Shown piece after piece: positions 9,243 to 26,203 of a stretch of 64,000 bases of DNA. The stretch lies in assembly GCA_029259775.1 (NCBI GenBank), contig JAJDEN010000020.1, forward strand, positions 78,846-142,845, given 5' to 3'. Source of the DNA: Planctomycetota bacterium. GTDB lineage: Bacteria > Planctomycetota > PLA2 > JAEUHO01. A program made the position numbers and the translations under genes. The notes beneath the pieces were generated by a model. The model did not search any database, had not been told where the DNA came from, and was given only the letters and a program-made list of their open reading frames with translations. Positions within the stretch are counted from its first letter, which is position 1. The number at the start of each line of letters is the position of its first letter.

Positions 9243-9337
9243 CGCAGGTGCGCCGAGGCCGCTAGCGAGCCCGGTCCCGGACGATTGCGCTTCGTGCCCG
9301 GTCTCCGTACCGCGTGCCGGCGTAGGGCGACGGTGCG

Positions 9338-9685: not shown

Positions 9686-9798
9686 CGCCTCAGTCTCGCG
9701 AGGAGGCGGCGCGCTGGCAACCCCGGAAACGTGCGTACCGAGGCCGGACCCTCGCCTTGTGCCTGGTTCCTTCCTAGGCTCCGGAGGGAGGCATCGAC

Positions 9799-10278: not shown

Positions 10279-10293
10279 TCGCGGCCACGGAGG

Positions 10294-10986
10294 TCAACCG
10301 GGCTCGCCGAGGGCCGCCCGAAGCAAGGCGAGAAACAGTGGATGCGGCGCACCAGGGCTCGTGGAGAGCTGCGGCTGGTAGAGCGTTCCCACGAAGAACG
10401 GGTGATCTGGACGCTCCACCGCGCGGACGTCTCCGGTGTCGTCTACGGCGGCGATCCTCATCCCGCCCGCCGAAGCGAGTTCGTGAAGGTCCGGCCGTAG
10501 CCCGTAGTCGCATGTGGTCCTCTCGGTCGAGGTCAGGACTCCATGGGCACGCTGGAGCGACGATCCCGGCGTGAGCAAGACTTCGATCTCTCGATCTCGA
10601 AGCGAGCACGCCAGCTTCGTGATCACGGCGTCGCCGCCCTCGCCGTACTCCGCGTGTGACGCATCAGCGTTGCCCAGGATGTTTCGAGCGTGCTCGACCA
10701 GCACATGCTGAAACCCCGCTCAGGTACCAAGGAGAGGCAGGCCACGCTCCCGCGCATGCCGTATGACCGCGTACGCAGCTCCCTCGACGTCATAGGGACT
10801 CCCCGGACCGACGATGACGCCAGACCCCAGACGCCGGGCGTCACCGTCCCACGCGGGCGTGCGGACGACCCTGGGCACGACGGGGATCGACAGCTCCGCG
10901 CCAGCGTGCTCCAAGGCGCGGCATGTGGCCCGATGAAAGTCGTGGTCTGGGCGGAGGTCCATCAGCACCGAGACTTCGATCGTCAT
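10294..10986 (-). CDS. Class I glutamine amidotransferase (CTP-synthase C-domain-like) with an in-frame TGA at 10720-10722 replacing the catalytic Cys; candidate selenoprotein or nonsense pseudogene
   Basis: ORFs 10720..10986 and 10294..10704 share a frame and are separated by one TGA. Read-through gives ...RGLPLLGT-U-AGFQHVLVEHARNILG, against the GATase1 / CTP synthase motif GICLGMQ...EFARNVLG. Confidence 0.55.
10699..10710 (-). other. SECIS-like hairpin candidate (CAGC-AUGU-GCUG) starting 9 nt after the in-frame UGA, nested inside a GUUUC...GAAAC outer pairing
   Basis: Read from the minus-strand mRNA. GU in the apical loop about 16 nt after the UGA. Weak on its own. Confidence 0.2.
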
Positions 10987-11113
10987 CGTGGAATGCTACT
11001 CGACGTCCAGCCGCCAACGAGGGCGACATCGTGCCCGCACGGCGCCAACCCATCGACGCGCAAAACGCAGCCGCGCTCCTCGTTCGGCCGCGGAGACGCC
11101 CTGTCCGAATCAC

Positions 11114-11175
11114 TGCGGCGATCCGTGCGGCGATCCGTGCGGCGATCCGTGCGGCGGCCGTGCGGCGGCCGTGCG
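11114..11175. repeat. Tandem repeat (TGCGGCGATCCG)x3 + (TGCGGCGGCCG)x2 in the 515-nt intergenic region
   Basis: Direct repeats read from the sequence. Lies between the divergent GATase and S41 peptidase genes. Confidence 0.6.
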
Positions 11176-11502
11176 CTCCGGCCACCGCCAAGGTGCGACG
11201 ACGATTCCAACCTCCCCATCCTGGGAAGACGCCTCTCAGGTTTCCCGTACGGAGGGCCTCGCCCATCCGGCGCCTCATGGCTCGGTGATGCGCAAGGGCG
11301 GTGCGCTCGCTGGCGCACGCGGGCTGCAAGGACATCGCGTCGGGCTCCGACGTGGTGCGTCGCGGCCAACCCTCAGCCAACAGACCCGCTGCGGGTCCCC
11401 CTTCCACCTCAACTCGCTGCACGTCGGACGTGAATCCACCCGTGCGGCAATCGTGCCGAACGGAGGGGCGCAGTCCGCGCTGCTGTATCGTCGTTCGACA
11501 TC

Positions 11503-12480
11503 ATGCAGATTCCGGATCTTGTCGCCTGCTTCTTGGACCTCATCGATGCGAACTACGTCTTCCGAGAGAAGGCGGCCGCGATTCGGAATCGGATCGAGGA
11601 GCAGCTCGCAGCAGGGGCGTATGCGTCTCTCGGGCATCCCGCGTTCGCGGAGTCCATGACGGCCGACCTGCGAGCGTGCGCAGACGACCTCCACTTCAAG
11701 GTCATCCACAAGGAAGAACCGCAGCCGCTGCAGGAGACGGCGACAGAGGAAACGCCGGAAGACGTCGCGGAGTTCCGCAGGATCGCCCGATTCAACAACT
11801 ACGGCTGCTGCGAGGTGAAGCGGCTGCACGGCAACGTTGGATACTGGAAGATCGATGAGTTCTATGACCTCATCGACGGCAGTGGTCCCACGTTCGTTGC
11901 CTCGATGAGCATGCTGGCCAACACGGACGCGATCCTCGTTGATGTACGGGACAACTCGGGCGGAGACCCCGCCGCCGTTGCCCTCGCCTGTTCGTTCTTC
12001 TTCGATGTCGAGCCCGTTCTCCTGAACACGCTCGAGGGCAGGAAGCCCGACGCGGCACGCCAGTGGTGGACCCTGGCCCATCTCGAATGCGAGCGCTACC
12101 TGGACAAGGAAGTCTACGTGCTGATCAACAAGGGGACCGCCTCGGCTGCAGAAGAGTTCGCCTATGACCTGCAGGCTCTGGGCCGGGCCACGCTGGTCGG
12201 ACAATGCACCGCTGGTGCCGCCCACATTCGGGAGCAGTATCAAGTGGACGAGCACTTCTTCATAAACATCCCCATCCAGCGCGCCGTGAATCCGACGACG
12301 AGGACCAACTGGGAGGGCCACGGCGTCGCCCCCGACGTGGAGGCCGCGCCGGCGTCAGCGCTCGCTCTCGCGTACGGCATGGCCCTGCGCACGCTCTCCA
12401 AGAAGAGCGGATCGGCCAACGCGGAGCAGGATGAGATCCGACAGGCATTGGAGCAACTGTCCGAGGATGCCGAGAGCTAG
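11503..12480 (+). CDS. S41 family peptidase (C-terminal processing / tail-specific protease-like)
   Basis: ILVDVRDNSGGDPAAVA and VYVLINKGTASAAEEFAYDLQALGRATLVG (catalytic Ser/Lys blocks). The antisense 348-aa ORF is rejected. Confidence 0.8.
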   Translation: MQIPDLVACFLDLIDANYVFREKAAAIRNRIEEQLAAGAYASLGHPAFAESMTADLRACADDLHFKVIHKEEPQPLQETATEETPEDVAEFRRIARFNNYGCCEVKRLHGNVGYWKIDEFYDLIDGSGPTFVASMSMLANTDAILVDVRDNSGGDPAAVALACSFFFDVEPVLLNTLEGRKPDAARQWWTLAHLECERYLDKEVYVLINKGTASAAEEFAYDLQALGRATLVGQCTAGAAHIREQYQVDEHFFINIPIQRAVNPTTRTNWEGHGVAPDVEAAPASALALAYGMALRTLSKKSGSANAEQDEIRQALEQLSEDAES

Positions 12481-12679
12481 CCAAGCTGCCTGAGGGCTCC
12501 CGCCGCACTTCGCACCACGTAGCCGCGACGAGCCTAGGCGCGCGGGCGGTCCGAAGCAGGGCCGGTATTCGCTTGCAAGGCACGCGCTGACCCGCGCCTG
12601 ACCCTGGGCGCCGTCTGTCGAGTGGATCTGCGCCCGCCCATCCGCACCACCGACACCGACGCTCCGGCCTGTCTGCTCG

Positions 12680-13759
12680 TCAAGCTCGGCGACGGCGCGC
12701 AGCGAACAACGAGGCGATGAGACCAACGGCGGTGAGTGGAAGTGCGAACCCGAACAACGCGACGCCGAAGGCATCTCGTAGGGCGTGCCCACTCGCGGCC
12801 AAGACGAGCCATGCGGCGTACGCGGCGTAGTAGGCCAGCAGAACGGCGCCTTCCCAGCGCGTCACGCGATGCCCGGTCATGAACACAGGCAAGCAGGCGA
12901 TCGTGGCCCCAACCAGGACGGGGAAATCGAAACGCAACGCAGCCTCAGGCACCGCGATGCCTCCCTGTGCGACGGCCGTGACGCCGAGCACGCCGAGCAA
13001 GTTGAACAAGTTGGATCCAATGACGTTGCCCACCGCGATGTCGCGCTCGCCCTTGAAGGCGGCAATGACCGACGTCGCGACCTCGGGCAGGGAGGTCCCG
13101 GGCGCCACGATGAGGAGGCCGATGGTCAGCTCGCTCACTCCGAGAGAACGTGCCACTTGCGAAGCACCGGTAACGAACCAGCTCGAACCCAGCACCAGAA
13201 GCCCCAGCGCGGCGAGCGCTACGACGACGTCGAGCCCCCAACGGCGCGTCCTCGTTCCGAACTCGCGGGCATACTCGGTGGCGACCAACTTCGCCTCCCT
13301 CCGACCGCCTCGGATGGCAAGGACCGTGTAGGCGACGAGACCAAGCAGGAGTCCCGCGCCCGCACCAACGCCGATTCGTCCGCTTGCGGAGAGAGCCCAC
13401 GTCACGCCGCTGACGAGGATGAGCAGCGGCACTTCCCTGCGGACGAAGCGTTGGTGGACCAGCAAGGGCGTGATGGTCGCGGAGAGCCCGAGGATGAACA
13501 GCACGTTGAAGATGTTCGATCCGACGACATTGCCGACCGTCAGGCCGGCCAGGCCCGCGTCAGCAGACTGGAAGCTGACCGCCAACTCCGGGGCACTGGT
13601 CCCGAAGGCCACGACGGTCAGCCCGATGACCAGCGGTGAGACGCCGAGCGCGACGGCAAGCCTGCTTGTGCTGCGTACGAGCAAGTGCCCACCTGCTACG
13701 AGCAGGATCAAGCCAGCCGCGACGCGCCCGAGGGTGATGGGGTCCATGCGCGAGAGCAT
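12680..13759 (-). CDS. Ca2+/Na+ antiporter (CaCA / YrbG family)
   Basis: Two alpha-repeats with GTSAPELAVS and GTSLPEVATS. Multi-TM hydrophobic profile. Confidence 0.85.
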   Translation of the reverse strand: MLSRMDPITLGRVAAGLILLVAGGHLLVRSTSRLAVALGVSPLVIGLTVVAFGTSAPELAVSFQSADAGLAGLTVGNVVGSNIFNVLFILGLSATITPLLVHQRFVRREVPLLILVSGVTWALSASGRIGVGAGAGLLLGLVAYTVLAIRGGRREAKLVATEYAREFGTRTRRWGLDVVVALAALGLLVLGSSWFVTGASQVARSLGVSELTIGLLIVAPGTSLPEVATSVIAAFKGERDIAVGNVIGSNLFNLLGVLGVTAVAQGGIAVPEAALRFDFPVLVGATIACLPVFMTGHRVTRWEGAVLLAYYAAYAAWLVLAASGHALRDAFGVALFGFALPLTAVGLIASLFAARRRRA

Positions 13760-14020
13760 AGGCGCAGAGCGGCGGCAAGGCTGGACTCAGACCGCCAGCG
13801 GAACCGCCCACAACGCGCGTCGCTGGCACGGGCGGTCTCCGCTCGCCCCGACCACCCGTACCGGCGACCCAGAGGTCGAGCCTGGTTGCTCACCCTGGGT
13901 CGCTGGTTCTCTTTTTGGATCGGTCGCGCCAGCACCGGCTCTTGGCAGGAGTTGTAGGTCGTGGGTACCTAGCGGCCCCTCGCCCAAGCGTGAGCCGCTC
14001 TCTCTGGGTATGCTGCGGCT

Positions 14021-14209
14021 ATGGAAACGCTCAAGATCGTCCTGGTCATCGGTCTTGGAGCGAGCGCGGTGGCGATCGGTCTGGCCTACCTCATGTCCAT
14101 CTTCCATGGCAGCACCGTGTCGGGCGACGAGATCTTCCGGTACGTCGTCATCAGCTTCGTCGTCACGGCCACTGCGCTGGTGACGGTACGGCGCCGCCTC
14201 AAGAACTGA
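14021..14209 (+). CDS. Small two-TM membrane protein, hypothetical
   Basis: 62-aa hydrophobic ORF immediately upstream of the nucleotidyltransferase-like gene. No homology recognised. Confidence 0.3.
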   Translation: METLKIVLVIGLGASAVAIGLAYLMSIFHGSTVSGDEIFRYVVISFVVTATALVTVRRRLKN

Positions 14210-14263
14210 GTGCTACACGGCGAGTTGCACCTCCCGCAGCGCGCGTCTGGCAGGGAGCCGAAG

Positions 14264-14713
14264 GTGATCAACCCCGACTTCAACGATCTACTGCTCGCTT
14301 TCAACGCCGCTGAGGTGCGCTACTTGGTGGTTGGCGCGTACGCGGTGACGTTCCACGCACAGCCTCGCTTCACCAAGGACCTCGACCTATGGGTAGAGGC
14401 ATCGCCCGAGAACGCGGCCAAGGTGCACTCGGCGCTAACGGCGTTCGGCGCGCCCCTCGCGGACGTCACACCGGGTGAGTTGGCGAACGAGGACATGGTC
14501 TACCAGATCGGCGTTGCGCCGAACCGCATCAACAACCTCATGGGTGTGTCCGGTCTTGGGTTCAGCGAAGCGTGGCCGCAGCGCGTGGAATCCACCTACG
14601 GGGAGTGTCCGATCCACGTGATCTCGCGGCAGGACCTGATCCGCAACAAACGCGCCGCAGGTCGCCCGCAGGATCTTATTGATCTTCGCGCGCTGGGCGA
14701 AGACGTCGGGTAG
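14264..14713 (+). CDS. Nucleotidyltransferase-fold protein (possible TA-system type)
   Basis: GTG at 14264 preceded by AGGGAG. Motifs VVGAYAV...DLDLWV. Start chosen from the RBS. Confidence 0.5.
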   Translation: MINPDFNDLLLAFNAAEVRYLVVGAYAVTFHAQPRFTKDLDLWVEASPENAAKVHSALTAFGAPLADVTPGELANEDMVYQIGVAPNRINNLMGVSGLGFSEAWPQRVESTYGECPIHVISRQDLIRNKRAAGRPQDLIDLRALGEDVG

Positions 14714-14809
14714 TCAGGCCCACTCCTCGACGTCGAGCACGCGCCACGATGACCGGGTGACGCTCTCGAAGCCCAGAACGTAGCGCAGCAGCACGCTCCG
14801 CGCGCTCAC
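14714..14809 (-). pseudogene. Remnant of the 3' end of an alkA-like gene (encodes ...SSWRVLDVEEWA*)
   Basis: DNA and peptide similarity to the C-terminus of the intact gene at 20275..20940 and to the second remnant at 16220..16285 (CTCGACGTCGAGNACGCGCCAC shared). No upstream body. Confidence 0.4.
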
Positions 14810-14819
14810 TGCACCCCCT

Positions 14820-14844
14820 TGCACCCCCGCGCCAAGGGGGTGCA
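14820..14844. other. GC-rich hairpin TGCACCCCC-GCGCCAA-GGGGGTGCA with a duplicated left arm (TGCACCCCC at 14810-14818)
   Basis: Perfect 9-bp inverted repeat read from the sequence. Lies at the junction of alkA remnant 1 and the downstream cassette. Confidence 0.3.
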
Positions 14845-15046
14845 TCTCATGTGCGAAGAACTTGGGGCTGTGGCGCGATGTACCTCGGCGCGGCTACGCG
14901 ATGCGCGTGACGTGCCGAAGGTATCGCTTGAATATTCAGGATGCGGATTCGTCTCGCATCACAGCATTCGCAAGCGCCTGCGGCGGTACTCGCCGTCCGG
15001 CCCCCGCTCGATCATGTAGCCTCCCTCCGCAAGAGAGGCTCACGCC

Positions 15047-16009
15047 ATGATCGACACACCTCGCATCTCCCTGCTCGCTTCCGTCGTGCTCGCCGCTGGT
15101 CTCGTGGTCGGCTGTGTGTGTCCCAGCAAGCGCCCCCCGGCACGCCGCGCCACGTGCCCTATCGCGGACCCCATCCACGAAAAGAGCCCCGCGACCGTGT
15201 CGCTCGCGGGCGTCGTCCGCGACGAGCACGGCGAGCCCATTCCGGCCGCTCGGATCGACGTGGAGGGCCGCCCCGAGACCCTCAAGAGCCCTCCTCCGTG
15301 GTGGACCGACGTGCACGGGCGATTCGAGATCGACGACATTCCCCCGGGCCTCGTGAAGCTGCTCGTAGCTGCCGCCAAGGGCGCGGAGAACAAGGTCGTG
15401 GAGACCCGGACGGGCGTGCGCGACCTCGTGATCGTGCTGGACCCGGGTCCGCAGATGTTCCTGCGTCTCGTCGGCTACGTGCCCGGCGAGCAGGAGCGAT
15501 CGGCGCGTGTGACGTGGATGGAGCCCGATGGCTCACGCAGGGTCCGCTACGCGCCGATCCGCGCCGACGGCTGGGTGCGCTTCGTCGCCTTGCATCCGGA
15601 CCGGGAGTTCGAATTGTGGGCCGAAACCGAGTCCAAGCGGCGGCACGTTCGGGCCCGGGGTCTGAAGCCTGGGCGAAACGAGCAGCGCATCGAGCAACAC
15701 GAAGTCATGGACATCGCCGGGAAGGTACGTGCGTCGAAAGCCTTCATGGAATCGCGGGTCGAGGAAGTCCCAGGGCCGCTTCGTGATCGACTCACCGTGC
15801 ATGTCTCCGCGCAGGCACCTCGGGGCGCGCCGCATTTCGAATTCCGTGTCGCGCGAACGCGGCTGGAACGCGACGGATCCTTCCGCGTTCGTGGCCTTCC
15901 TCCAGGCACGTATGAGGTCGAGGTGGGCACGGGCATGGGCGAGGTCTTCTTGGTCTCCAAGATCGTCGAGGCAGGGACGACGGACGCGATCATCAGTCTC
16001 GATCGGTAG
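15047..16009 (+). CDS. Lipoprotein with carboxypeptidase-regulatory-like (CarbopepD_reg) beta-sandwich domains
   Basis: RBS AGAGAGG. Lipobox LVVGCVC. GVVRDEHGEPIPAARIDVEG...TDVHGRFEIDDIPPG. Confidence 0.6.
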   Translation: MIDTPRISLLASVVLAAGLVVGCVCPSKRPPARRATCPIADPIHEKSPATVSLAGVVRDEHGEPIPAARIDVEGRPETLKSPPPWWTDVHGRFEIDDIPPGLVKLLVAAAKGAENKVVETRTGVRDLVIVLDPGPQMFLRLVGYVPGEQERSARVTWMEPDGSRRVRYAPIRADGWVRFVALHPDREFELWAETESKRRHVRARGLKPGRNEQRIEQHEVMDIAGKVRASKAFMESRVEEVPGPLRDRLTVHVSAQAPRGAPHFEFRVARTRLERDGSFRVRGLPPGTYEVEVGTGMGEVFLVSKIVEAGTTDAIISLDR

Positions 16010-16219
16010 CGCGCGGCCCATGGCGGCCCGTTCTGCCCCCTTCGCACATCCGCGGCTGGGACGGGCCTGGATCGAGTGCGCGTTCTGACCCTTTCCAACG
16101 CCCGTGCTGGTGCTGGTGCTGGTACAGAGAGACCTCACGCCAAGGTGCCCGCATGCTGGCTGCATTGGCTCCATCTCCGTACGAGTAGTCTCGGCTCGCT
16201 GACTCGAACGAGCGAAGCG

Positions 16220-16285
16220 TCAGCGCCAATCCTCGACGTCGAGAACGCGCCACAGATACGAGCGCGCTCTCCGAAGCCGAATTCA
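16220..16285 (-). pseudogene. Remnant of the 3' end of an alkA-like gene (encodes ...RARSYLWRVLDVEDWR*; in-frame stop further upstream)
   Basis: Matches the AlkA C-terminal motif (compare E. coli PWRSYALLHIW) and the other two copies. Confidence 0.4.
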
Positions 16286-16607
16286 ATGCGCCCTGGAGAG
16301 TGAACCGGGCCGTTACTCCCCCACCTAGTCCCGGGGGAGCGGGAGTTGCGGGGGTGTATCGCAGGAGGCGGCGCGTGCTGCGCTTGGCGGGTCCGACGAC
16401 GCACCGCTCGCGGGCATCCGTGCTCCCCCTCGCCATGCTGTCCGGGAGCAGGTGTTGCCCAACGTTGTCGCCCACGCACGCGCTCCGTTGGGGCGGATAC
16501 GGGAGGCGATGTCCTTGCAGCAGCGCCCGGCACAACTTGTCCGTTTGCCTTCTCAGCGCCGTCCGCGTGAAATGCGTTCGGCGATTCCCCGCCTGCTTGA
16601 TGGGTCG

Positions 16608-19600
16608 ATGCGCGTATCGGTGATAGCCCTCGTCTGCTTGCTGTTGCTCCTGGGCCCCGCTGCGGCTGAAGACGAGAAGAAGGAGGAGCCCAAAAAGCCC
16701 GCCCCGGAGATGACCGAGGCCGAGCGCGAGGCGGCGTTGAAGAAGGCGAAGCGACTGAACCAGCGGCTCGTCAGTCTGCACGGGGAAGCCAAGTACGCGC
16801 AGGCCCTGCCGGTGGCGCGCGAGGCTCTCAAGATCCGGGAGAACGCGCTCGGGCCTGAGCACCCCGACGTGGCCTTGTCCCTCTACAACCTGGCCTCGCT
16901 GCTCGATAACCTCCGGCACTACGAAGAGGCGAGGCCGCTCTACGAGCGCGCGCTCAAGATCCGGGAGAAGGCGCTCGGGGCCGAGCACCCCGACGTGGCC
17001 TTGACCCTCAACAACCTGGCCTCGGTGCTCGTTACCCTCAGGCAGTACAAGGAGGCGAGGCCGCTCTTTGAGCGCGCGCTCAAGATCCGGGAGAAGGCGC
17101 TTGGGCTCGAGCATCCCAGGGTGGCCTTGTCCCTCCACAACCTGGCCTCGATGCTCGTTACCCTGCGGCAGTACGAAGAAGCGAGGCCGCTCTATGAGCG
17201 TGCGCTCAAGATCCGGGAGAATGCCTTCGGGCCCGGGCACCCCGACGTGGCCCCGTCCCTCAACAACCTAGCCTCGCTGCTCCTTGACCTCAGGCAGTAC
17301 GAGGAGGCGAGGCCGCTCTTTGAGCGCGCGCTCAAGATCTGGGAGAAGGCGCTTGGGCTCGAGCATCCCAGGGTGGCCTTGTCCCTCAGCAACCTGGCAT
17401 TGCTGCTCCAAAACCTGCGGCAGTTCGAAGAGGCGAGGCCGCTCCATGAGCGCGCGCTCAAGATCCGGGAGAAGGCCTTCGGGCCCGAGCACCCCGACGT
17501 GGCCTCGTCCCTCCACAACCTCGCCTCGCTGCTCAAGACCCTTGGGCAGTACGAAGAGGCGAGGCTCCACTACGAGCGCGCGATCAAGATCCGGGAGAAG
17601 GCGCTCGGGGCCGAGCACCCCAACGTGGCCTCCTCCCTTCACAGTCTGGCCTCGCTGCTCCAGACCCTCGGGCAGTACGAAGAGGCGAGGCTCCTCTACG
17701 AGCGCGCGCTCAAGATCCGGGAGAATGCCTTCGGGCCCGGGCACCCCGACGTGGCCCCGTCCCTCCACAACCTAGCCTCGCTGCTCCTTGACCTCGGGCA
17801 GTACGAAGAGGCGAGCCCGCTCTGCGAGCGCGCGCTCGAGATCTGGGAGAAGGCGCTCGGGCCGGAGCACCCCTACGTGGCCTCGTCCCTCAACAATCTG
17901 GCCTCGGTGCTCCAGGCCCTCGGTCAGTACGAAGAGGCGAGTCTCCACTTAGATAGCGCTCTCAACATCCTGGCGAAGGCGATCGGGCCCGATCACCCCA
18001 CGGTGGCCTCGTCCCTAAACACCCTGGCCTCGCTGCTCAATACCCTCGGGCAGTACCAAGAGGCGAGGCTCCTCTACGAGCGCGCACTCAAGATCCTGGA
18101 GAAGACGCTCGGGCCTGAGCGCCCCAGGTTGGCCTTGTCCCTCAACAACCTGGCCTCGCTGCTCGCTACGCTCAGGCAGTACAAGGAGGCGAGGCCGCTC
18201 TTTGAGCGCGCGCTCAAGATCTGGGAGAAGGCGCTTGGGCTCGAGCATCCCAGGGTGGCCTTGTCCCTCAACAACCTGGCCTGGCTGCTCGGGGACCTCG
18301 GGCGATACGAAGAGGCGAGGCCGCTCTACGAGCGCGCGCTCAAGATCCGAGAGAAGGCGCTCGGGCCCGAGCACCCCGACGTGGCCTCGTCCCTCAACAA
18401 CCTGGCCTCGCTGCTCGGTACCCTCGGGCAGTACAAGGAGGCGAGGCCGCTCTTTGAGCGCGCGCTCGAGATCCGGGAGGAGGCGCTCGGGCCCGAACAC
18501 CCCAAGGTGGCCTGGTCCCTCAACAACCTGGCCTTGCTGCTCGGTAGGCTCGGGCAGTACGAACGAGCGGTGCCCTTGCTGGCGAGGTGTCTCAGAGCAA
18601 CTGAAGGGCGCGTGCGACGTGGCCTCTCCGGACTCCAGACCTCCGAGCGGCTTGGCCTGTTGCATTCCCTGCGTCGCTACTTGGCGACATGGCACCGGGT
18701 TGCGCCACACGTCAGGCGTTCAGGTCTTGCCGAGACCCTGCGTTTCAAGGGGATCCTGTCCCGCGCCATGGTGGCGGAGCGCCGTCTGGCCCGAGGTGCC
18801 AACGCCGAGGTGCTCGCACGCATCGCCGCTCTGCGCGCCGCCGAACGCCAACTCGCCAAGATCGCCAGCTCGCCGCCTTCGTTCCGCGACAAGAAGAAGA
18901 AGGCGAAATGGCAAGAGGCGTACGCGAATGCAGCGACTGAGCGCGAGGAACTCGCCGTTGCATTGGCGAGGGACTTCGCCCCTCTTCGCCAAGGGCTCGA
19001 ACGACTCGACCTCAAGTTGCCGGACATCCAAGCAGCGATCGCCCAGGACGCTGTCCTCGTGGACTACCTACGCTCCGGCGACCAGTACATCGCCTGGGTC
19101 GTGCCGCAGAACGGCGACGTGAAGCGCGTGGACCTGGGCAAGGCGGAGAAGATCGAAGCCGCTTCGGCCGCGTTCGCCGAACAGGCGGCGGATTCCGACG
19201 ACCCCGCTTGGGGCACGGCGGCGAAGGCACTCCGCGACCTGATCTTCAAGCCCATCGAAGCGCACATCGGAAAGAGTGTGACGACACTCAACATCTGTCC
19301 CGACGCCGCGCTTGCCGCCGTCCCCTTTGGGGCGCTGCCTTCGTCAGATGGCAGGACACCCCTTGGTGTTCGGTACACGATCTCCACCCTCTCGATGGCT
19401 CAGGATCTGGTCCCGTGGGAGGGTGCTCCCAAGCCTGGCACCGGAGCACTTCTTCTCGGCGGCGTGGACTACGGCAAGGCGACTGCACCCGAGAAGAACG
19501 GACAACCCCGCGTCTTCGTGGACCGTGCTCCTCGCGGCGGCAAGTACCTTTACCTAGCCGGAACGAAGGCGGAGGTCACGGCCATCAAGCCCGGGCTGGG

Positions 19601-20222
19601 CAAGGGGACTACGACTGTCCTCGGAGCCGACGCCACGGAGTCCGCCGTCAGAACAGCCTCGAATGGGAAGCGCGTGCTCCACCTCGCCACGCACGGCTTC
19701 GTGCGCGACAACCTGATGCGCGGCCTGATCCGCGGTCGTGACGACAAGCGCTGGCTGGGCGCATCCAAGGAACGCCAATTCGCGGCAGGCCACGATCCGA
19801 TGAATCTCTCCGGCCTGGCCATGGCCGGAGCCAACACGCGCAAGGGCGGCGGCGACGACGACGGCATCCTCACGGCGCTGGAGGCATCGCACCTGGACCT
19901 CGACGGCGTGGAACTCGTTGTCCTGTCTGCCTGCGAGACGGCGCTCGGGACGGCTGAGTCGGGCGAGGGCGTCATCGGTCTCGTGCGCGGGTTTCAGATG
20001 GCCGGAGCCAAGCAGGTCATCGGAAGCCTGTGGAAGGTGGACGACGACGCGACGACAGCGTTGATGGTGAAGATGTACGAACTCTGGGCACCCAAGGACG
20101 GCGGGAAACGCATCCCTGCCGCCGTAGCGCTGAGGAAGGCACAGGAGTACGTGCGCGGTCACGACAAGTGGAAGCACCCCTACTACTGGGCGGCGTGGGT
20201 GATCTGGGGCGTCGGGGACTGA
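16608..20222 (+). CDS. Secreted TPR-repeat protein with a C-terminal CHAT (caspase-like protease) domain
   Basis: Signal peptide MRVSVIALVCLLLLLGPAAA. About 14 consecutive 42-aa TPR_12-like units (ALSLNNLASLL...YEEARPLYERALKIREKALGPEHPDVA). C-terminus has the CHAT His/Cys dyad context (LHLATHGFV, VLSACETALG). Alternative start 16572. Confidence 0.8.
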   Translation: MRVSVIALVCLLLLLGPAAAEDEKKEEPKKPAPEMTEAEREAALKKAKRLNQRLVSLHGEAKYAQALPVAREALKIRENALGPEHPDVALSLYNLASLLDNLRHYEEARPLYERALKIREKALGAEHPDVALTLNNLASVLVTLRQYKEARPLFERALKIREKALGLEHPRVALSLHNLASMLVTLRQYEEARPLYERALKIRENAFGPGHPDVAPSLNNLASLLLDLRQYEEARPLFERALKIWEKALGLEHPRVALSLSNLALLLQNLRQFEEARPLHERALKIREKAFGPEHPDVASSLHNLASLLKTLGQYEEARLHYERAIKIREKALGAEHPNVASSLHSLASLLQTLGQYEEARLLYERALKIRENAFGPGHPDVAPSLHNLASLLLDLGQYEEASPLCERALEIWEKALGPEHPYVASSLNNLASVLQALGQYEEASLHLDSALNILAKAIGPDHPTVASSLNTLASLLNTLGQYQEARLLYERALKILEKTLGPERPRLALSLNNLASLLATLRQYKEARPLFERALKIWEKALGLEHPRVALSLNNLAWLLGDLGRYEEARPLYERALKIREKALGPEHPDVASSLNNLASLLGTLGQYKEARPLFERALEIREEALGPEHPKVAWSLNNLALLLGRLGQYERAVPLLARCLRATEGRVRRGLSGLQTSERLGLLHSLRRYLATWHRVAPHVRRSGLAETLRFKGILSRAMVAERRLARGANAEVLARIAALRAAERQLAKIASSPPSFRDKKKKAKWQEAYANAATEREELAVALARDFAPLRQGLERLDLKLPDIQAAIAQDAVLVDYLRSGDQYIAWVVPQNGDVKRVDLGKAEKIEAASAAFAEQAADSDDPAWGTAAKALRDLIFKPIEAHIGKSVTTLNICPDAALAAVPFGALPSSDGRTPLGVRYTISTLSMAQDLVPWEGAPKPGTGALLLGGVDYGKATAPEKNGQPRVFVDRAPRGGKYLYLAGTKAEVTAIKPGLGKGTTTVLGADATESAVRTASNGKRVLHLATHGFVRDNLMRGLIRGRDDKRWLGASKERQFAAGHDPMNLSGLAMAGANTRKGGGDDDGILTALEASHLDLDGVELVVLSACETALGTAESGEGVIGLVRGFQMAGAKQVIGSLWKVDDDATTALMVKMYELWAPKDGGKRIPAAVALRKAQEYVRGHDKWKHPYYWAAWVIWGVGD
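16790..18560 (+). repeat. About 14 near-identical tandem 126-bp repeats inside the TPR-CHAT CDS
   Basis: GAGCGCGCGCTCAAGATCCGGGAGAAGGCGCTCGGGCCCGAGCACCCCGACGTGGCC recurs with few substitutions. Confidence 0.7.
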
Positions 20223-20274
20223 CGCGTAGGCGCCGTCTGATCGAGTCTGATACAGCGGCGACAACGTTGGGCAA

Positions 20275-20940
20275 CTACGGGGTCCACTCCCCCACGTCAT
20301 GTACGCGCCACATGTACCAGGCGAAGATGGACCGATACGGGCGGTGAGGGTCGCCGCGGGGCTCGAGCTGCTTCGCCGTCGGCGCTGCCTTGGCTCCCAT
20401 GAACTTCGCGTAGCCATTGCGGACGCCGAGATCGAGCACCGGCCACACATCCATGCGGCCGAGGGAGAACATCAGGTGCATCTGCGCCGACCATGCACCG
20501 ATCCCCCACACCTGGGTGAGCGATTCGATGACGTCAGCGTCCTCCATCGACGACAAGGCCTCGGGGTCGACATGGCCCGCCGTGATGTGACGCGCCAGGT
20601 CCTTGATGCTCTTCGTCTTGGCGCCGGAGAGGCCGGCCTTGCGGTAGGTCGTGTCCCGCTTGCGCAGTACCGCGCGCGGCTCGAACCCGTCGTCGGGAAA
20701 GAGCGCCGTCACCCGCCCCCAGATCGCCGACGCCGCCGCGCCGGCCAACTGCTGGTAAGCGATCGATCGCGAGATGCTCTCGAAGGTCGACGGACGCAGC
20801 TCGACAGACGGCCGCCCCACCACCTCCACGAGGCGCGCGAAGCGCTCGTCGCGCGCGGACAACTCGCGCACAGCCTTGGCAGGTCGCCAGTAGCGGGTCG
20901 TCACGTCACCTCCGGCCGGCGAGGGTAGCGTGACCAGCAA
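20275..20940 (-). CDS. alkA: DNA-3-methyladenine glycosylase II family (AlkA-like HhH-GPD) protein
   Basis: HhH-GPD region (IAYQQLAGAAASAIWGRV, VWGIGAWSAQMHLMF) and C-terminus RPYRSIFAWYMWRVHDVGEWTP. Start uncertain: TTG at 20940, or GTG at 20904 with GGAGGT upstream. Confidence 0.7.
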   Translation of the reverse strand: MLVTLPSPAGGDVTTRYWRPAKAVRELSARDERFARLVEVVGRPSVELRPSTFESISRSIAYQQLAGAAASAIWGRVTALFPDDGFEPRAVLRKRDTTYRKAGLSGAKTKSIKDLARHITAGHVDPEALSSMEDADVIESLTQVWGIGAWSAQMHLMFSLGRMDVWPVLDLGVRNGYAKFMGAKAAPTAKQLEPRGDPHRPYRSIFAWYMWRVHDVGEWTP

Positions 20941-20963: not shown

Positions 20964-21482
20964 ATGACGCTGATGGATGCCGTATTCACCAAGGCTGAGT
21001 GGGACCTCTTGCCGGAGGGATTCCCCGCCGAGCTGATCGAGGGAACGCTCGTGCGCGAGCCGTCCCCCACGTACGGACACCAGTGCGTGGCCGCTCGCTT
21101 GCGGGCGCGACTGTTCGGCGTCGTAGGACCCGACCTGTGTCCCGACACGCCGGCCGACGTGTTCCTTGATGAGATCAACATCTTCGAGCCTGATCTCGTG
21201 GTACTGCGCGAACGGCCTGCGATGGACACGCCCTACGTCGGTATCCCATTGCTCGTCATCGAGGTCCTCTCGCCCTCCGCCGCGCGGCGCGACCGAACCG
21301 TCAAGAAGGACAAGCTGCTCGAAGCGGGCGTCGAGGAAGTCTGGCTCGTGGATCGCCGCACACGCTCGATCGAGATCCATCGGTCGGGGCCGGACGTGCG
21401 CAGTTTCCGTGCGGAGGAGACAGCCTCGTCGCGCGCGTTGCCCGGCTTTGAGGTCGTGCCGCTCGCGCTCTTCGCCGAATAG
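20964..21482 (+). CDS. Uma2 family (DUF820) endonuclease
   Basis: FPAELIEGTLVREPSPTYGHQ, IPLLVIEVLSPS, EVWLVD; end-to-end Uma2 architecture. Confidence 0.8.
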   Translation: MTLMDAVFTKAEWDLLPEGFPAELIEGTLVREPSPTYGHQCVAARLRARLFGVVGPDLCPDTPADVFLDEINIFEPDLVVLRERPAMDTPYVGIPLLVIEVLSPSAARRDRTVKKDKLLEAGVEEVWLVDRRTRSIEIHRSGPDVRSFRAEETASSRALPGFEVVPLALFAE

Positions 21483-21484
21483 GG

Positions 21485-21540
21485 CGTGCTCGCGGATGAA
21501 GGCGTGTTCGCGGACGAATGGCTGTTCGCGGACGAAGGCG
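21485..21540. repeat. Three tandem copies of an 18-19-nt unit (GTGTTCGCGGACGAAGGC-like) between convergent genes
   Basis: Direct repeats read from the sequence. Confidence 0.5.
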
Positions 21541-21549
21541 ATCAACAAG

Positions 21550-22827
21550 TCAGGGGCGCGCGGGCGTCAGCGGGTCCATGGCGATGCCCGCCGAGCGGAG
21601 CAACAGGCACACGAGCTCGTACGCGGTGAAGCGCCCGAGCCCGCCCTCCGCACACGCGCGCTCGCCGAAGGACATGCAGCCGTCCGCCGTCCCGCCCGGC
21701 ACGCGAACCAGCGTGGGCACGGGATCGCTCGTGTGGTTGCCCGTACGACTATCGGTCGTGTGGTCGGCCGAGACGCCGATGACCCAGGGTTGCTCGAGCA
21801 GCGGCGCGAGGGCGGCGTCCGCGCGCTCGAGGAACAGGCGCTTCGCGTCGGGATTGCGGTCATGCGCGGCGATGTCGGTGCCCTTGACGTGCAGCCAGAC
21901 GACGTCATGATCCGACAGCGCGTCGGAGGCAGCAGCCACCTTCGCGTCGATGTCCGTATCGAGAAGACCTGTGAAGCTGGGGTGCGTCACGCAGGCGAAG
22001 CCAAGCAGCGAGCCCATGCCGAGCACCGTGCGGTCGCCTGATACGACGGCCCCCGTCAGCCCCACCGCGCTGACCACGCTCTCGAACGACTGGGCCATGC
22101 CCGCGCCGCGCGTGAGCAGGCCATTGGCCGGCGGCAGGCCCTGGGCCGCGCGCGCCTGGTTGACCGGATGTGCAGCGAGAACGTCATGCGCCCGCAGCAG
22201 CCAGGCGTTCAACGCGGCGGCCGTGCGGACAGCGGCTGCGTCGCCGGACGCCACGGCCTCGCTCGGCAGCAGTCGCTGGACGTCGCTCTCGCCACCGGGA
22301 TCCGTGTCGGTGATGTCGGCGCCGACGTCCCCACCGGAGATGCGCAATACGCCGCGATGCTGCCCAAGCGGCTCCAGGTGCATGGCCATGCCGTCGACGG
22401 GCGGCAGCGCGTTCACGGCTTGGGCCAGCTCGACGGTGCCGTGCTGGATGCGGCCCGCACGCCGGTCGAGGATGTCGAGTCCGCCGTCGCGCGACACGAC
22501 GGTCGCGAAGTTGACCCGCAAGGCGATGTCGCCGCGCGCAAGCTCCAGCCCCACCCCCGCCGCTTCCACCGGGCCGCGGCTCAGGCCCTGGGCCCCCTCG
22601 ATGTGCAGCCCCATGAGGGCTCCGGTGCCCGTCTGCGTACCGACGGTGACGCCCGGGCGCAGGGGATCCACGAGGCCGCAGCGCCCCTCGCTCGCGAGAC
22701 GATCGAGTACGGGCGTGTGCGCCGCTTCGAGCGGCGTCGCGTGGCCCAGCATGGGGATGGGGAGATCGCCCAGCCCGTCGAAGATGACGAGCAGGATCTT
22801 TCGGCGGGCAGGTGTCCCGTCCGTCAT
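21550..22827 (-). CDS. apgM: Cofactor-independent phosphoglycerate mutase, archaeal type (ApgM family, alkaline-phosphatase superfamily)
   Basis: KILLVIFDGLGD...HTPVLDRLA; VWLHVKGTDIAAHD; VIGVSADHTTDSRTGNHTSDPVP. ATG at 22825-22827 with GAGG upstream. Confidence 0.8.
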   Translation of the reverse strand: MTDGTPARRKILLVIFDGLGDLPIPMLGHATPLEAAHTPVLDRLASEGRCGLVDPLRPGVTVGTQTGTGALMGLHIEGAQGLSRGPVEAAGVGLELARGDIALRVNFATVVSRDGGLDILDRRAGRIQHGTVELAQAVNALPPVDGMAMHLEPLGQHRGVLRISGGDVGADITDTDPGGESDVQRLLPSEAVASGDAAAVRTAAALNAWLLRAHDVLAAHPVNQARAAQGLPPANGLLTRGAGMAQSFESVVSAVGLTGAVVSGDRTVLGMGSLLGFACVTHPSFTGLLDTDIDAKVAAASDALSDHDVVWLHVKGTDIAAHDRNPDAKRLFLERADAALAPLLEQPWVIGVSADHTTDSRTGNHTSDPVPTLVRVPGGTADGCMSFGERACAEGGLGRFTAYELVCLLLRSAGIAMDPLTPARP

Positions 22828-22861
22828 CACGAAGCCTCGCTCATCAGACGACCCATGCTCA

Positions 22862-24049
22862 TCAGAAGACCTCGTCAGGCGTGCCGTCGAAACGGTCTGC
22901 CAGCTCGGCCATGAGGATGCCCATGACCTGGTGGACCGTGTCGTCGACGTTCTCGTTCGCCACGATCGGAACCCCGAGCTGATCGGCCTCCGAGAGCATG
23001 AACGACTGCAGGTTCCAGATCTCGTCGAAGAAGTTGAGGTAGCGCTTCGCACGGCGGTCGGGCTCACGCTTGCCGCGGCCCGTGATGCGGGCCTTGAGCT
23101 GGCGCGGCTTGAGCACGGCGAGCATCACGCGCACGAAGATCGCGTCGTTGTCATCGCCCAGGCTCTTGATCAGGCCGGGGTGGGCATGCACACCTTCGAG
23201 CACCAGGGAGACACGCTCGCGCAACGCACGTCGGATCACGGCTTCGCACGCCACGGAGACGAGCTTGGCCTGGGTGAGGTAGCCGTTGACCAGCGCGGAG
23301 TCCGCGCCCTCCCCAATCTGCTCGTCGGCCGCCACGCGCTGCGGGAGCGTCTGCCACGCCTTGAAGGTCGATGTGTGGAGCACCGGCAAGAGGCCCTGCG
23401 GCATCATCATCCGCATGACCTCGCGCAGCATGTCGGTGGACTGCGTGCGTACGATCTCCATGCGGTGCGCGATCTGGGCAGCGATCGTGCTCTTGCCGCT
23501 ACCGACCGCACCGCCGACGACCAGGACCAGCGGACGCTTGCTGCGCCGGAACTCCTGCCACACGAGGTAGTGGCGTGCCGGCTCGTCGCCGAGATGGGCG
23601 AGCAGATGCGTATGCGTCAGGTGGCGCAGGTCGCGCGACGACAAGATCTTCACGTTGCGGTTGACGAGATCCTCGTAGATGAACGCAGCGGCCGTAGCAG
23701 CGGCGTCCGGAGCAATACCGCAGGAGACGAGGCTCAGCCGATGGCGTCCACGGGAGAAGGGGCTCTCGTGCCCGTCGGAGTGATGGATCAGGATCTCGGC
23801 CGGTGAGGTCGGGTTGAGGTAGCGCTGCACGACCTCGGCGCCGAAGCGCTCGATGCGCGGCACGAGCCGGCTGCGCAGTTCGTCGGTCGTGAGGTCGCCC
23901 GTCGTATCGAGTTCCTGACGCACGCCGGAGGCGATGGCGTAGGCCTCTTCGAACGGCACGCCGGCGGTCTGCAGGGACCGGGTGAGGATCCCGCGCAGGA
24001 AGGGGAAGCGCGTCCCCTCCGCCTCATCGATCACCATCGGGCGCGCCAC
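22862..24049 (-). CDS. 2-phosphoglycerate kinase family protein (ATP-cone + P-loop kinase)
   Basis: N-terminal ATP-cone-like region. Walker A VVGGAVGSGKSTIAAQIA. Architecture of bacterial or archaeal 2PGK. Confidence 0.75.
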   Translation of the reverse strand: MARPMVIDEAEGTRFPFLRGILTRSLQTAGVPFEEAYAIASGVRQELDTTGDLTTDELRSRLVPRIERFGAEVVQRYLNPTSPAEILIHHSDGHESPFSRGRHRLSLVSCGIAPDAAATAAAFIYEDLVNRNVKILSSRDLRHLTHTHLLAHLGDEPARHYLVWQEFRRSKRPLVLVVGGAVGSGKSTIAAQIAHRMEIVRTQSTDMLREVMRMMMPQGLLPVLHTSTFKAWQTLPQRVAADEQIGEGADSALVNGYLTQAKLVSVACEAVIRRALRERVSLVLEGVHAHPGLIKSLGDDNDAIFVRVMLAVLKPRQLKARITGRGKREPDRRAKRYLNFFDEIWNLQSFMLSEADQLGVPIVANENVDDTVHQVMGILMAELADRFDGTPDEVF

Positions 24050-24173
24050 TAGGTTGCACCTCGGGCGCCGTGTTCCGTGCGCGGCGACGGGAGATCCATC
24101 AGGTCAGGCATGGGCAGGAAGATACACCCCCGGCCTCCCACGCGACGGGCAATCCACTGCAGAGCGGCGCGCC

Positions 24174-24836
24174 CTACTCGGAGTAGCCGATGCGGTCGAA
24201 CGGGCTCACGACGGACGACGCCATGTTCCGGGCATGAGCGCTGATGCGCTTCAGGAAGCGGATGTACAGCGCCAGGGCCGCGGCCGTGCCCGTGTCGAGC
24301 TCGACCTCGCCGCCCACGAGCGCATCCTCGAGGCGACGGTAGTGGCGGCGCACGTCGCCGGTGTAGTCGCGCATGAGGCTGCGAGCAGCGTCTTCGTCGC
24401 CCTCCTTGAAGGCGGCCACAGCGTGATCGAAGAGATCCATCGTCTCCTTCTCGAGCTGGGCCAGACGATCCTCCATCGGCCCGCCATCGAGCCGCGTGGG
24501 GTGGCTCACGGCGATGTCGTAGATGTTCTTCGCGTAGTCGCCGATGCGCTCGATGTCGATGACGATCACGACGAGTACGAGGCCCGAGGAAAGATCGGCC
24601 ACGTTGCCGAGCGAGAGGTGCGTCAGCACCTTGCGGCGGACGTCGCGCTCGAAGGAGTTGATGCGCTGGTCCAAGGCCGCGATGTCCACGTCCACCGTCG
24701 CGTCGTCGCGCCGACGAAGCGTCTCGATGGACGCGTGGATCATCTGGCGGCAGACGTCCAGCATCTCATGGCACTCCTGCAGGGCCTGCGCCTGCATGTT
24801 GTCCTTGCGGAGGAGATCCAGGAACTTGCGTAGCAT
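24174..24836 (-). CDS. PhoU-like phosphate-transport regulator (TIGR00153-type, two PhoU repeats)
   Basis: ATG at 24834-24836 preceded by GGGAG, 2 nt after the upstream stop. IERIGDYAKNI motif. Confidence 0.75.
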   Translation of the reverse strand: MLRKFLDLLRKDNMQAQALQECHEMLDVCRQMIHASIETLRRRDDATVDVDIAALDQRINSFERDVRRKVLTHLSLGNVADLSSGLVLVVIVIDIERIGDYAKNIYDIAVSHPTRLDGGPMEDRLAQLEKETMDLFDHAVAAFKEGDEDAARSLMRDYTGDVRRHYRRLEDALVGGEVELDTGTAAALALYIRFLKRISAHARNMASSVVSPFDRIGYSE

Positions 24837-24838
24837 GA

Positions 24839-26023
24839 CTATCTCCCGAAGAACACGATCAGGAACGGGATCGCGTAGAAGACGACGATGATGTAGACGA
24901 GCGGGATCAGCTTGTTCCGCATCGCGATGGTACTGAACGCTTGGGCCATGCGAATGGGGATCCAGCGGATCCACCAGACGATGGCGACACCCACGACGTT
25001 GAAGATCACATGGTGGAACGCCAGCTCGAGACCGAGGAACGCCTTGGTGTAGGCCGCTGGATCGGCGATGTCCGCCGCGGCCAACGCGGCGAGGGACGCG
25101 ATCAGCGCCGTGATCGTGGTGCCGATGTTGGCGCCCATCGTGTAGGGCATCACCTGGTGGATGGTCAGGATGCCCGCACCCACGAGGGGCACCGCGATGG
25201 ACGTGGTGATCGAACTGCTCTGGACGAGCACCGTCAAGATGAAGCCGAAGAACAGCCCACGGGCCGCGGACTTGAAGATCACCCGATCGAACAGGTTCTC
25301 CAGCTTCTCGAGCATGATGCTCTTGAGCACCTTCACCAGCATGATCAGGCCGAGGAACGTCATGGCCACACCGATGGCGAGCATGATCCCGCTACCGTTG
25401 CCGAACCACTCCGTGCTTAGGGTGTCCCCCAGCCAGCCGGCCACGCTGTCGCAGAACTTCTGGATCCCCTCGATGATCGGCTTCGTGATGGCCTTGATCG
25501 GGTTGGCGAGCTTCGTGCCGCCGATGTCCTGGAAGGCGTGGGCCGACCAGCCTGCCATCTTGTCCAGGAAGCCGGTGTAGACCTCGAGCGGGAACAGGAT
25601 CACGAGCACGATGAGATTGAAGAAGTCGTGTACCGTCGCGGCCGCGAAGGCACGTTGGTACTCCGCCGTCTGGCGCATGTGGCCGATGGAGACGAGCGTG
25701 TTCGTGACCGTCGTGCCGACGTTGGCGCCCATGACCATGTAGATGCCGGCGCTGTAGCCGACCTGTCCGCTCGCGACGAGCGCGACGACCATGCTCGTCG
25801 TCGTCGAGGAGCTCTGGACGAGCGTCGTGGCCAGGATGCCGATGAACAGCGAGACCAGGGGACCCGTAGCGCCGCCGAGCAGTTCCTCGGTGTAGCCCGC
25901 ACCCATGGCCTTGAACGAGCCACCCAGCGTCCCGATGCCGAGCAGGAAGAGGTAGAGGAAGCTGAAGGTCAGCAGGACCTTCACCCACGTGGGCAGTCGG
26001 GAGAGCAGGCTAGGGGCACCCAT
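24839..26023 (-). CDS. nptA: Na+/phosphate cotransporter (NptA / Na_Pi_cotrans family)
   Basis: Duplicated VQSSSTTTSMVVALV and VQSSSITTSIAVPLV blocks. Multi-TM. Confidence 0.8.
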   Translation of the reverse strand: MGAPSLLSRLPTWVKVLLTFSFLYLFLLGIGTLGGSFKAMGAGYTEELLGGATGPLVSLFIGILATTLVQSSSTTTSMVVALVASGQVGYSAGIYMVMGANVGTTVTNTLVSIGHMRQTAEYQRAFAAATVHDFFNLIVLVILFPLEVYTGFLDKMAGWSAHAFQDIGGTKLANPIKAITKPIIEGIQKFCDSVAGWLGDTLSTEWFGNGSGIMLAIGVAMTFLGLIMLVKVLKSIMLEKLENLFDRVIFKSAARGLFFGFILTVLVQSSSITTSIAVPLVGAGILTIHQVMPYTMGANIGTTITALIASLAALAAADIADPAAYTKAFLGLELAFHHVIFNVVGVAIVWWIRWIPIRMAQAFSTIAMRNKLIPLVYIIVVFYAIPFLIVFFGR

Positions 26024-26203
26024 AGCTCGGAAGATTCCTCCAAGGCAGCTTGCTGTGTCGCTCTGTCTGCGGGTCTGATAGCACGGACCGCTCCGGTGCA
26101 AGATGGCAAATCGGGTTGGTTTCCGCCTGCGCGATTGCGAGGGCGCGGTCTGTTCCACTCCGCAGGGGAACAGTACGCTCTACGCCCCCCTCCTGGAGGC
26201 CCC

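Follow-up and report, generated by a model that had tools for sequence, protein, structure and literature searches.

To our knowledge, among systems that accumulate single promoter-independent gene cassettes at one chromosomal site, only integrons are well understood. Insertion at the 3' end of a housekeeping gene is a feature of the staphylococcal cassette chromosome (SCC) and pseudo-SCC elements, which are composite islands of tens of kilobases at rlmH (orfX), are moved by the serine recombinases CcrAB or CcrC, and have short terminal inverted repeats and no long conserved arm. Small integrative elements without a recombinase of their own, the integrative mobile elements exploiting Xer (IMEX), rely on the host XerCD at dif and build up as tandem arrays at a single chromosomal position. 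Clusters of attC sites lacking an integrase nearby (CALINs) have also been described (PMC4889954), and two further reports present integrase-less elements as mobilizable in cis or in trans (PMC3146451, PMC5704250). In this study, the 3' end of alkA, a DNA glycosylase gene, was investigated in a 64-kb stretch of DNA (hereafter the window; 69% G+C) from contig JAJDEN010000020.1 of a Planctomycetota bacterium, where displaced alkA ends alternate with unrelated accessory genes. The comparative data are all metagenome assemblies: the source genome is represented by the window, and its relatives, which are uncultured Planctomycetota metagenome-assembled genomes, some of them labelled Acidobacteria, by pieces of at most 20 kb.

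We read this locus as the product of serial site-specific insertion of small cassettes at the alkA 3' end, with a probability of roughly 0.78. The reading is carried by the architecture itself, by its recurrence in five lineages, by two presence/absence polymorphisms with identical breakpoints and by one insert with a 15-bp direct repeat. Under serial insertion, the alkA 3' end would be the primary, attI-like attachment site, which small circularizable cassettes, usually of one accessory gene each, would enter one by one, with the crossover falling within GTGGCGC(G/A)T, some 10 codons upstream of the stop codon of alkA. On one side, the cassette would bring a replacement for the last 8-11 codons of alkA and its stop, such that alkA stays intact, and on the other side a non-coding arm of ~120 nt with a GC-rich hairpin and the end ...TCGTCATC beside the core. 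Each insertion at alkA would displace the prior tail outward, giving an array of the form alkA-core-tail(n)-gene(n)-arm(n)-core-tail(n-1)-..., in which the newest cassette stands beside alkA. Movement would pass through a circular intermediate and would be catalyzed in trans by a recombinase whose gene lies in another part of the genome; a tyrosine recombinase is the most likely candidate, because a shared overlap of 7-9 bp and a long one-sided arm favour this type. Insertion, rather than excision only, may still be active.

The strongest evidence for site-specific recombination is that two independent polymorphisms have the same breakpoint. Loci L010 and L089 are 99.55% and 99.96% identical in the two flanks, and exactly 1309 bp are missing from L089. 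The 1309-bp insert of L010 consists of a new alkA tail (..LEVDFEA*), an FGE-sulfatase gene and a long arm, and is flanked on both sides by the 15-bp direct repeat GTGGCGCGTGCTGGA; in L089 the site is empty, and alkA runs directly into the tail ..LDLEEWV* and a DUF6036 gene. At most one mismatch was observed in the 652 nt upstream of the insert and one in the 2656 nt downstream, with no tract of donor single-nucleotide polymorphisms. The second pair, L093 and L094, was obtained from two related JGI samples. Their common stretch of 1133 nt is 99.9% identical and breaks off precisely at the 5' edge of GTGGCGCG, where the breakpoint of the first pair also lies; past this point, alkA coding sequence (...GCCTGGTACAT) is present in L093 and a cassette arm (...CACCGCGTCATC) in L094. 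Both pairs vary in the cassette that adjoins alkA. Since the 1.3-kb unit is polymorphic between near-identical contigs (L010/L089), the small units themselves move or are lost precisely. From L010 and L089, the parts of a cassette are, in order, a new tail of 8-11 codons with its stop, the cargo in either orientation, the arm of ~120 nt and the core. Direct repeats, a restored gene end and an empty site in a close relative, the features of elements that target the 3' end of a gene, were thus all found.

In the window, three co-oriented alkA 3' ends are present on the minus strand where the initial annotation had placed them: the last codons of the intact gene, which form the primary insertion site, and two displaced copies, B and A (Table 1). 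Decisive for recognizing these copies as alkA ends is the exact match of the encoded tails to the C-termini of orthologues that are ~78% identical to the window AlkA protein. Orthologue P0003 ends in ...WYMWRVLDVEDWR (WRVLDVEDWR), the tail of copy B, P0004 ends in ...WYMWRVLDVEEWA (WRVLDVEEWA), the tail of copy A, and P0005 ends in ...GEWTP, as the intact window alkA does; 605 homologues of the gene, under the names given by their sources, were found in total. At the nucleotide level, the resemblance of the copies to the window alkA is lower than the ~83% first claimed, being 68-73% over 44 nt and 80% over 20 nt, and by tblastn it is non-significant (E 0.5-2.9). The alkA-derived ends are real but shorter than was annotated, only about 45-50 nt each, made up of the tail, the 15-nt core and ~12 nt upstream; the remainder of copy A, to 14809 and on to 14867, is an arm unrelated to alkA. 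Both copies contain the 22-mer CTCGACGTCGAG[C/A]ACGCGCCAC, which occurs in the 64 kb only at 14726-14747 and 16232-16253. When up to three mismatches were allowed, no further occurrence appeared in the 64 kb, with 0.03 matches expected from shuffles, and the motif is not a genome-wide GC-rich repeat. Full-length paralogous alkA genes were not found at these sites in the relatives. The present alkA tail probably came in with the TPR-CHAT cassette, as its P' side, judging from the comparison of L010 with L089; a TPR-CHAT homologue also follows alkA in L007, with the same tail type and TTGCCCAACGTTG.

The arms form a family of which eight copies were aligned, with pairwise identities of 70-83%. 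Each is ~120 nt long with a GC-rich hairpin and ends in ...TCGTCATC next to the core, and in the four best copies exactly 81 nt separate GATGCACCCCCT from GTCATCGTGGCGC, without indels. Arm A displays the blocks GATGCACCCCCT, GCAAGGGGGTGCA, CTGCGCTACGTTCTGGGC and CACC.GGTCATC, together with the hairpin at 14810-14844. This hairpin is real, as had been annotated, and has a 12-bp stem (TGCACCCCCTTG/CAAGGGGGTGCA); rather than an oddity of one junction, it is part of the conserved cassette-borne arm. Arm B, which belongs to the TPR-CHAT cassette, is matched by nhmmer over its last ~45 nt only. The likeness of the arm to alkA is limited to the last ~12 nt before the core, and immediately upstream of the arm the cassettes are unrelated in sequence (37-43%). 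The arm is non-coding, as its variable columns are spread 13/12/11 over the codon positions and most codon differences are non-synonymous. An ATG-initiated open reading frame (ORF) of 43 aa, at 14714-14845 in the window, shares its reading frame with the tail in every long module; as a candidate small protein it was rejected for its lack of codon-position bias and of any Pfam match. All tails keep an in-frame stop within 8-12 codons. Single-stranded DNA folds of four modules, computed for both strands, agree on the internal GC-rich hairpin only and leave the ends unpaired, and the 5' arm of the hairpin is invariant among copies. As far as the aligned letters go, the hairpin is a conserved inverted repeat, and its folding is predicted. 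The only bases common to every junction are GTGGCGC(G/A)T, which is the size of the overlap region of a tyrosine recombinase and may be assigned to that role. Dyad symmetry around the core was seen by eye in one reconstructed site (CACCTC...GAGGTG, the L010 FGE cassette) and in none of the others.

Comparatively, the locus shares its logic with integrons and CALINs and with accretion of the SCC and ssrA type, whereas its site family, its coding-end target with tail replacement and its lack of a linked recombinase match none of them. As in integrons and CALINs, co-oriented sites lie between mostly single-gene cassettes, each with one structured site of ~60-140 nt. New integron cassettes enter at one primary site at the array head, and both polymorphic cassettes here adjoin alkA; moreover, the sites form a sequence family within a lineage, as Vibrio cholerae repeat (VCR)-type attC sites do. 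No integrase lies nearby in either the CALINs or this locus. On the other hand, the site here is not an end-to-end imperfect palindrome, having only a 35-nt hairpin located 81 nt from the core. The primary site lies inside the coding end of a housekeeping gene, an end that the cassette rebuilds, the cassette genes mostly face against the array, so that there is no Pc-type expression logic, and no IntI was found at the loci examined. A pair of R''/R' boxes (RYYYAAC...GTTRRRY) was absent from window 13700-20400, from L010 10500-16260 and from the L006 array; GTTRRRY was absent from both strands of every module, with no GTT at the crossover, and no Rfam family matched the modules. Membership among attC sites and integrons was rejected on the absence of these boxes, of an end-to-end fold and of an Rfam match.

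The SCC elements resemble the locus in their insertion into the 3' end of a conserved housekeeping gene whose end is reconstituted, in the short direct target repeats at every junction and in tandem accretion, which includes elements without their own recombinase that rely on one in trans; they differ in that the units here are single-gene units of 1.3-4 kb with a 120-nt arm, in Planctomycetota. Recombinase-less small elements in tandem at one chromosomal site are also what IMEX are, but the site here has a high G+C content, is located within a coding sequence and, by eye only, displays no conserved ATAA...TTAT features of dif. As described in PMC3146451 and PMC5704250, the ssrA islands of Dehalococcoides, like integrative and conjugative elements (ICEs) with their cis-mobilizable derivatives (CIMEs), arise by serial integration at the 3' end of one gene and leave repeated copies of that end. 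Those islands are multi-gene and carry or adjoin a cognate integrase gene, whereas none was seen here. We consider it an even chance that the locus represents an undescribed integron-like gene-capture platform in Planctomycetota, with the alkA coding end as its primary site, single-gene cassettes with structured sites of ~135 nt, insertion at the head, a hairpin arm with a GTGGCGC core, and a recombinase that is neither IntI nor array-linked. Nothing on cassette arrays or on integration at alkA was found in the part of the literature covered, and this silence is a weak sign of novelty.

The architecture recurs with different cargo in four other lineages (L006; L010/L089/L115; L093/L094; L119), making five with the window. 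In L006, alkA (tail EEWA*) is followed by a convergent ORF of 137 aa and then by a second alkA end, which amounts to one cassette, and over the 144 nt around this second end the identity with window 14719-14862 is 80%. In L010, alkA is followed by a further four junctions, of which three are clear and one is decayed, and the cargo between them consists of an FGE-sulfatase gene, DUF6036 and its small partner, a gene for a lipoprotein, and a Glyoxalase+MBL pair. An intact alkA and a long module bracket DUF6036 in L093. On the 309-kb contig of L119, two long modules and one short remnant make up three junctions, which separate two Pkinase-AAA-TPR giants and DUF6036. In addition, L007 shares alkA and TPR-CHAT with the window at ~80% nucleotide identity, its contig ending inside the TPR repeats. 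Extra alkA ends were not found at the distant alkA loci L011-L019.

Taken over all loci, the cassettes comprise one or two genes each, none of them a recombinase, and the set includes TPR-CHAT, CarboxypepD_reg, FGE-sulfatase, DUF6036 with its partner, a lipoprotein, Glyoxalase with an MBL protein, and Pkinase-TPR. This cargo is unrelated between cassettes and lies in either orientation. The cassette duplication that the initial annotation had offered as one option finds no support, the cassettes being unrelated to each other, while its other option, serial site-specific insertion at alkA, is supported by the arrays of different cassettes in relatives and by the two pairs that have or lack a cassette exactly at the alkA core. 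When the FGE cassette protein was followed, its only close copy was in the same lineage (L115), and the 58%-identical homologues L116-L118 were without modules. PADLOC gave generic TPR and kinase-domain matches only for the cargo proteins. The module distribution is based on one metagenome scan and one genome scan, and the metagenome scan with the strict module pattern returned one contig. Three pattern scans of viral contigs yielded nothing but seeded chance matches, located within phage genes, and no module was found in L095 by nhmmer.

Read in the direction of alkA, the window displays the alkA core, the tail DVGEWTP*, TPR-CHAT and arm B; core B, the tail EDWR*, a post-tail sequence, CarboxypepD_reg and arm A; and finally core A, the tail EEWA*, a truncated DUF6036 and a decayed junction. 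Cassette 1 spans 16254-20296 (4058 bp from core to core) and cassette 2 spans 14748-16238 (1506 bp). Because alkA directly abuts DUF6036 in L089, L092 and L093, the window looks like a base state alkA-DUF6036 with two later insertions, and the DUF6036 gene behaves as an older cassette or a base neighbour. The array probably reaches further left, through DUF6036 to ~13776, and junction Z is likely its far end. By blastn, this junction matches L010 16091-16151 (84%) and 13592-13645 (78%), the post-tail profile matches it at E 1.2e-16, and a putative core remnant was read in it by eye. The post-tail sequence after copy B has related counterparts after modules m3 and m4 in L010. Pfam confirmed the HhH-GPD, Uma2, TPR+CHAT and CarboxypepD_reg annotations given earlier. 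The Uma2 gene, which had been counted among the genes following alkA copies, lies upstream of alkA and is a neighbour rather than a cassette, because L005 also has Uma2 upstream of alkA.

Other explanations of the locus were considered. The cassettes could be decayed integrative elements, that is, prophages, ICEs or integrative and mobilizable elements (IMEs), which once had their own integrase and lie in tandem at alkA, with the arm as a leftover attP arm and the polymorphisms as deletions. Tandem accretion at the 3' end of a gene with repeated target ends is well known, for example from the ssrA islands of Dehalococcoides (PMC3146451), integrase-less CIMEs are reviewed in PMC5704250, and the direct repeats and tail replacement would fit this explanation. 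We nevertheless regard it as improbable, as an integrase or a fragment of one is kept in none of ~12 cassettes from five lineages, the sequence adjacent to the arm is unrelated (37-43%) between cassettes, whereas int normally lies beside attP, and a single-gene unit of 1.3 kb differs between near-identical contigs. The cassettes examined also encode no integrase of their own, as members of the integrative-element class would.

Still less credible is a history without any dedicated recombinase, in which homologous recombination after DNA uptake acted through alkA and the arms or DUF6036, and precise losses came from slippage between short repeats. Horizontal exchange is indicated at the locus, and this counts in favour of serial insertion as well: the alkA genes of the window and L010 are 73% identical, with 0.47 identity at 4-fold sites, and DUF6036 (window 14238-14713 against L010 11937-12412) is 95% identical at the nucleotide level, with 0.85 at 4-fold sites, so this exchange is far more recent than the divergence of alkA. 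Beyond DUF6036, the similarity between the window and L010 stops at 14238. The arms, being 70-83% alike, could serve as homology, but such identity over 120 nt makes a poor RecA substrate. Homologous exchange, moreover, could not create the first arm-core junction, leaves the breakage at the same base in every junction unexplained, and is at odds with the flanks of the L010 insert, where no tract of donor polymorphism is seen. The remaining explanation, that the copies are decayed tandem alkA paralogues or that the 43-codon ORF is a small gene with an AlkA-like C-terminal motif, has in its favour the constant frame shared by this ORF and the tail; we consider it effectively refuted, since the truncation falls at one and the same base in every copy, the arm does not resemble the alkA body, and the substitutions show no codon-position bias, with 10-15 non-synonymous against 1-3 synonymous codon differences per pair and no Pfam match.

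Several observations count against serial insertion by a dedicated enzyme. Integrase, recombinase and transposase domains were absent from the 64-kb window when all sizeable ORFs and the gaps between them were searched with Pfam, in agreement with the initial annotation, and a recombinase was found neither in L010 nor in the gene tables of L005, L006, L007, L115 and L119, so that the enzyme is hypothetical. Each polymorphism could be a precise deletion rather than an insertion, and the 15-bp repeat could support RecA-independent deletion. Junctions also occur apart from the gene: L119 has no alkA body within 20 kb, where either alkA was lost or arrays are able to sit at secondary sites, and the junction in L090 has no alkA body nearby. 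Compensatory changes were absent from the hairpin (0 of 13 pairs in eight copies), so that its role as a folded structure is putative. Finally, the 239-nt end of L115 that does not match L010 implies that assemblies at this locus can be unreliable.

The locus bears on how cassettes arise and on whether other recombinases have evolved the integron strategy. It would be a second cassette system that looks independent, in which the recombination sites are clear, empty and occupied alleles occur naturally, and the cargo varies from TPR-CHAT proteins and kinase-TPR giants to nucleotidyltransferase pairs and secreted lipoproteins. Few genetic tools exist for the phylum in which it lies. If identified, the recombinase could provide GC-rich genomes with a new tool for site-specific integration and would allow the flux of accessory genes in uncultured Planctomycetota to be read. 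Should the enzyme be a conventional integrase on a helper element, the locus would still be a clean example of trans-mobilized mini-cassettes.

Table 1. Positions in the window of alkA, its displaced 3' ends, the cassettes and the associated sequences
Feature	Position	Strand	Evidence or remark
alkA, HhH-GPD DNA-3-methyladenine glycosylase II family, 209 aa	20275..20904	-	Pfam HhH-GPD E 1e-10; identical to P0001
Core site in alkA, GTGGCGCGTACATGA, attL-like junction	20297..20311	-	breakpoints in L010/L089 and L093/L094 at 5' edge of GTGGCGCG
Present alkA tail ..DVGEWTP*	20275..20296	-	same tail type and TTGCCCAACGTTG after alkA in L007
Right arm of perfect 19-nt inverted repeat, GGCGACAACGTTGGGCAAC on + strand	20257..20275	.	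abuts alkA stop codon
Cassette 1 cargo, TPR-CHAT protein: 14 TPR units of 126 nt, CHAT domain, N-terminal hydrophobic segment	16572..20222	+	Pfam TPR_12, CHAT
Left arm of perfect 19-nt inverted repeat	16454..16472	.	upstream of TPR-CHAT start
Arm B, divergent arm-family member (GATACACCCCC...), small hairpin CTCCCCC/GGGGGAG	16254..16385	-	aligns with long modules with two small insertions
Copy B, displaced alkA end: core GTGGCGCGTTCTCGA (16239-16253) and tail ..DVEDWR* (16220-16238)	16220..16253	-	tail identical to C-terminus of orthologue P0003
Post-tail sequence after copy B (GCTTCGCT..GCGAGCCGAGAC..)	16144..16218	-	nhmmer with post-tail profile, E 7.5e-14
Cassette 2 cargo, CarboxypepD_reg-domain lipoprotein	15047..16009	+	Pfam CarboxypepD_reg E 1e-13
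Arm A, conserved non-coding cassette arm (P arm)	14748..14867	-	80% identity over 144 nt to L006 5420-5563; nhmmer E 4e-42
Copy A, displaced alkA end: core GTGGCGCGTGCTCGA (14733-14747) and tail ..DVEEWA* (14714-14732)	14714..14747	-	tail identical to C-terminus of orthologue P0004
DUF6036-type nucleotidyltransferase gene	14264..14713	+	Pfam DUF6036, weak; convergent with and abutting copy A
Distal junction Z, probable, decayed: remnant ..GCTCGACCT.. then post-tail sequence	13776..13900	-	adjoins Na/Ca-exchanger gene

Some further features of the window cassettes were recorded. The 14 tandem TPR units of 126 nt (42 aa) in TPR-CHAT, at 16698-18639, are 81-90% identical at the nucleotide level, and the same-population contigs L001-L004 all stop ~1.8 kb (0.2 kb in L004) into the gene, at or before the TPR block. 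This gene is flanked by the 19-nt inverted repeat (GTTGCCCAACGTTGTCGCC and its complement), for which ~1e-4 chance matches are estimated in 8.5 kb. The alkA-side arm of the repeat is present in L007 with three differences, and, when terminal inverted repeats were sought as a general cassette feature, they were found in the TPR-CHAT cassette only. The repeat could be a pair of regulator sites, could serve as an inversion site or could delimit a separate mobile unit. The post-tail sequence, ~90 nt (..GCGAGCCGAGAC.ACCCGT.CCAGCGACC..GTTGTGGG..), follows several EDWR*-type tails in two genomes, at window 13776-13867 and 16144-16218 and at L010 13574-13664 and 16073-16161, and may correspond either to another arm (P') of the recombination site or to the ancestral downstream flank of alkA. 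The small partner gene of DUF6036 (MASVTRIITGNLARRG...) is present in L010, L092 and L093 and is lost in the window, where unrelated DNA with a hydrophobic ORF of 62 aa (14021-14209) lies to the left of 14238.

With reference to the related loci, the module array of L119 (ERZ25072999 ctg318806) occupies 5857-14200, after a GNAT gene, and includes two Pkinase-AAA_16-TPR proteins of ~1150 aa and DUF6036. In L090 (GCA_024227775.1), DUF6036 abuts a 15-codon alkA remnant (..YMWRIHHVDGWA*) with alkA-type upstream sequence at ~1933-1990; the remaining alkA is gone, and genes for DHFR and thymidylate synthase follow. Positions 1-239 of L115, which include the N-terminus of the FGE-sulfatase, do not match L010, the other 5474 nt being 99.98% identical, which points either to chimeric assembly of this 5' end or to rearrangement within the cassette gene. 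A 43-nt stretch like the arm end and core (..CACCGTCATCGTGGCGCGTGCCCGAC..) at L098 6308-6350 (IMGVR_UViG_3300037119_003445), inside coding sequence ending in ..MTPSSWRVPDFFMVRL*, is probably a seeded chance match. Variation extends to the upstream side of alkA, as shown by window 20964-29207 against L007 9054-10000: PNP_UDP_1 directly precedes alkA in L007, and ~7 kb separate the two genes in the window, containing Peptidase_S9, an Na/Pi cotransporter, PhoU, an ATP-cone kinase, phosphoglycerate mutase and Uma2.

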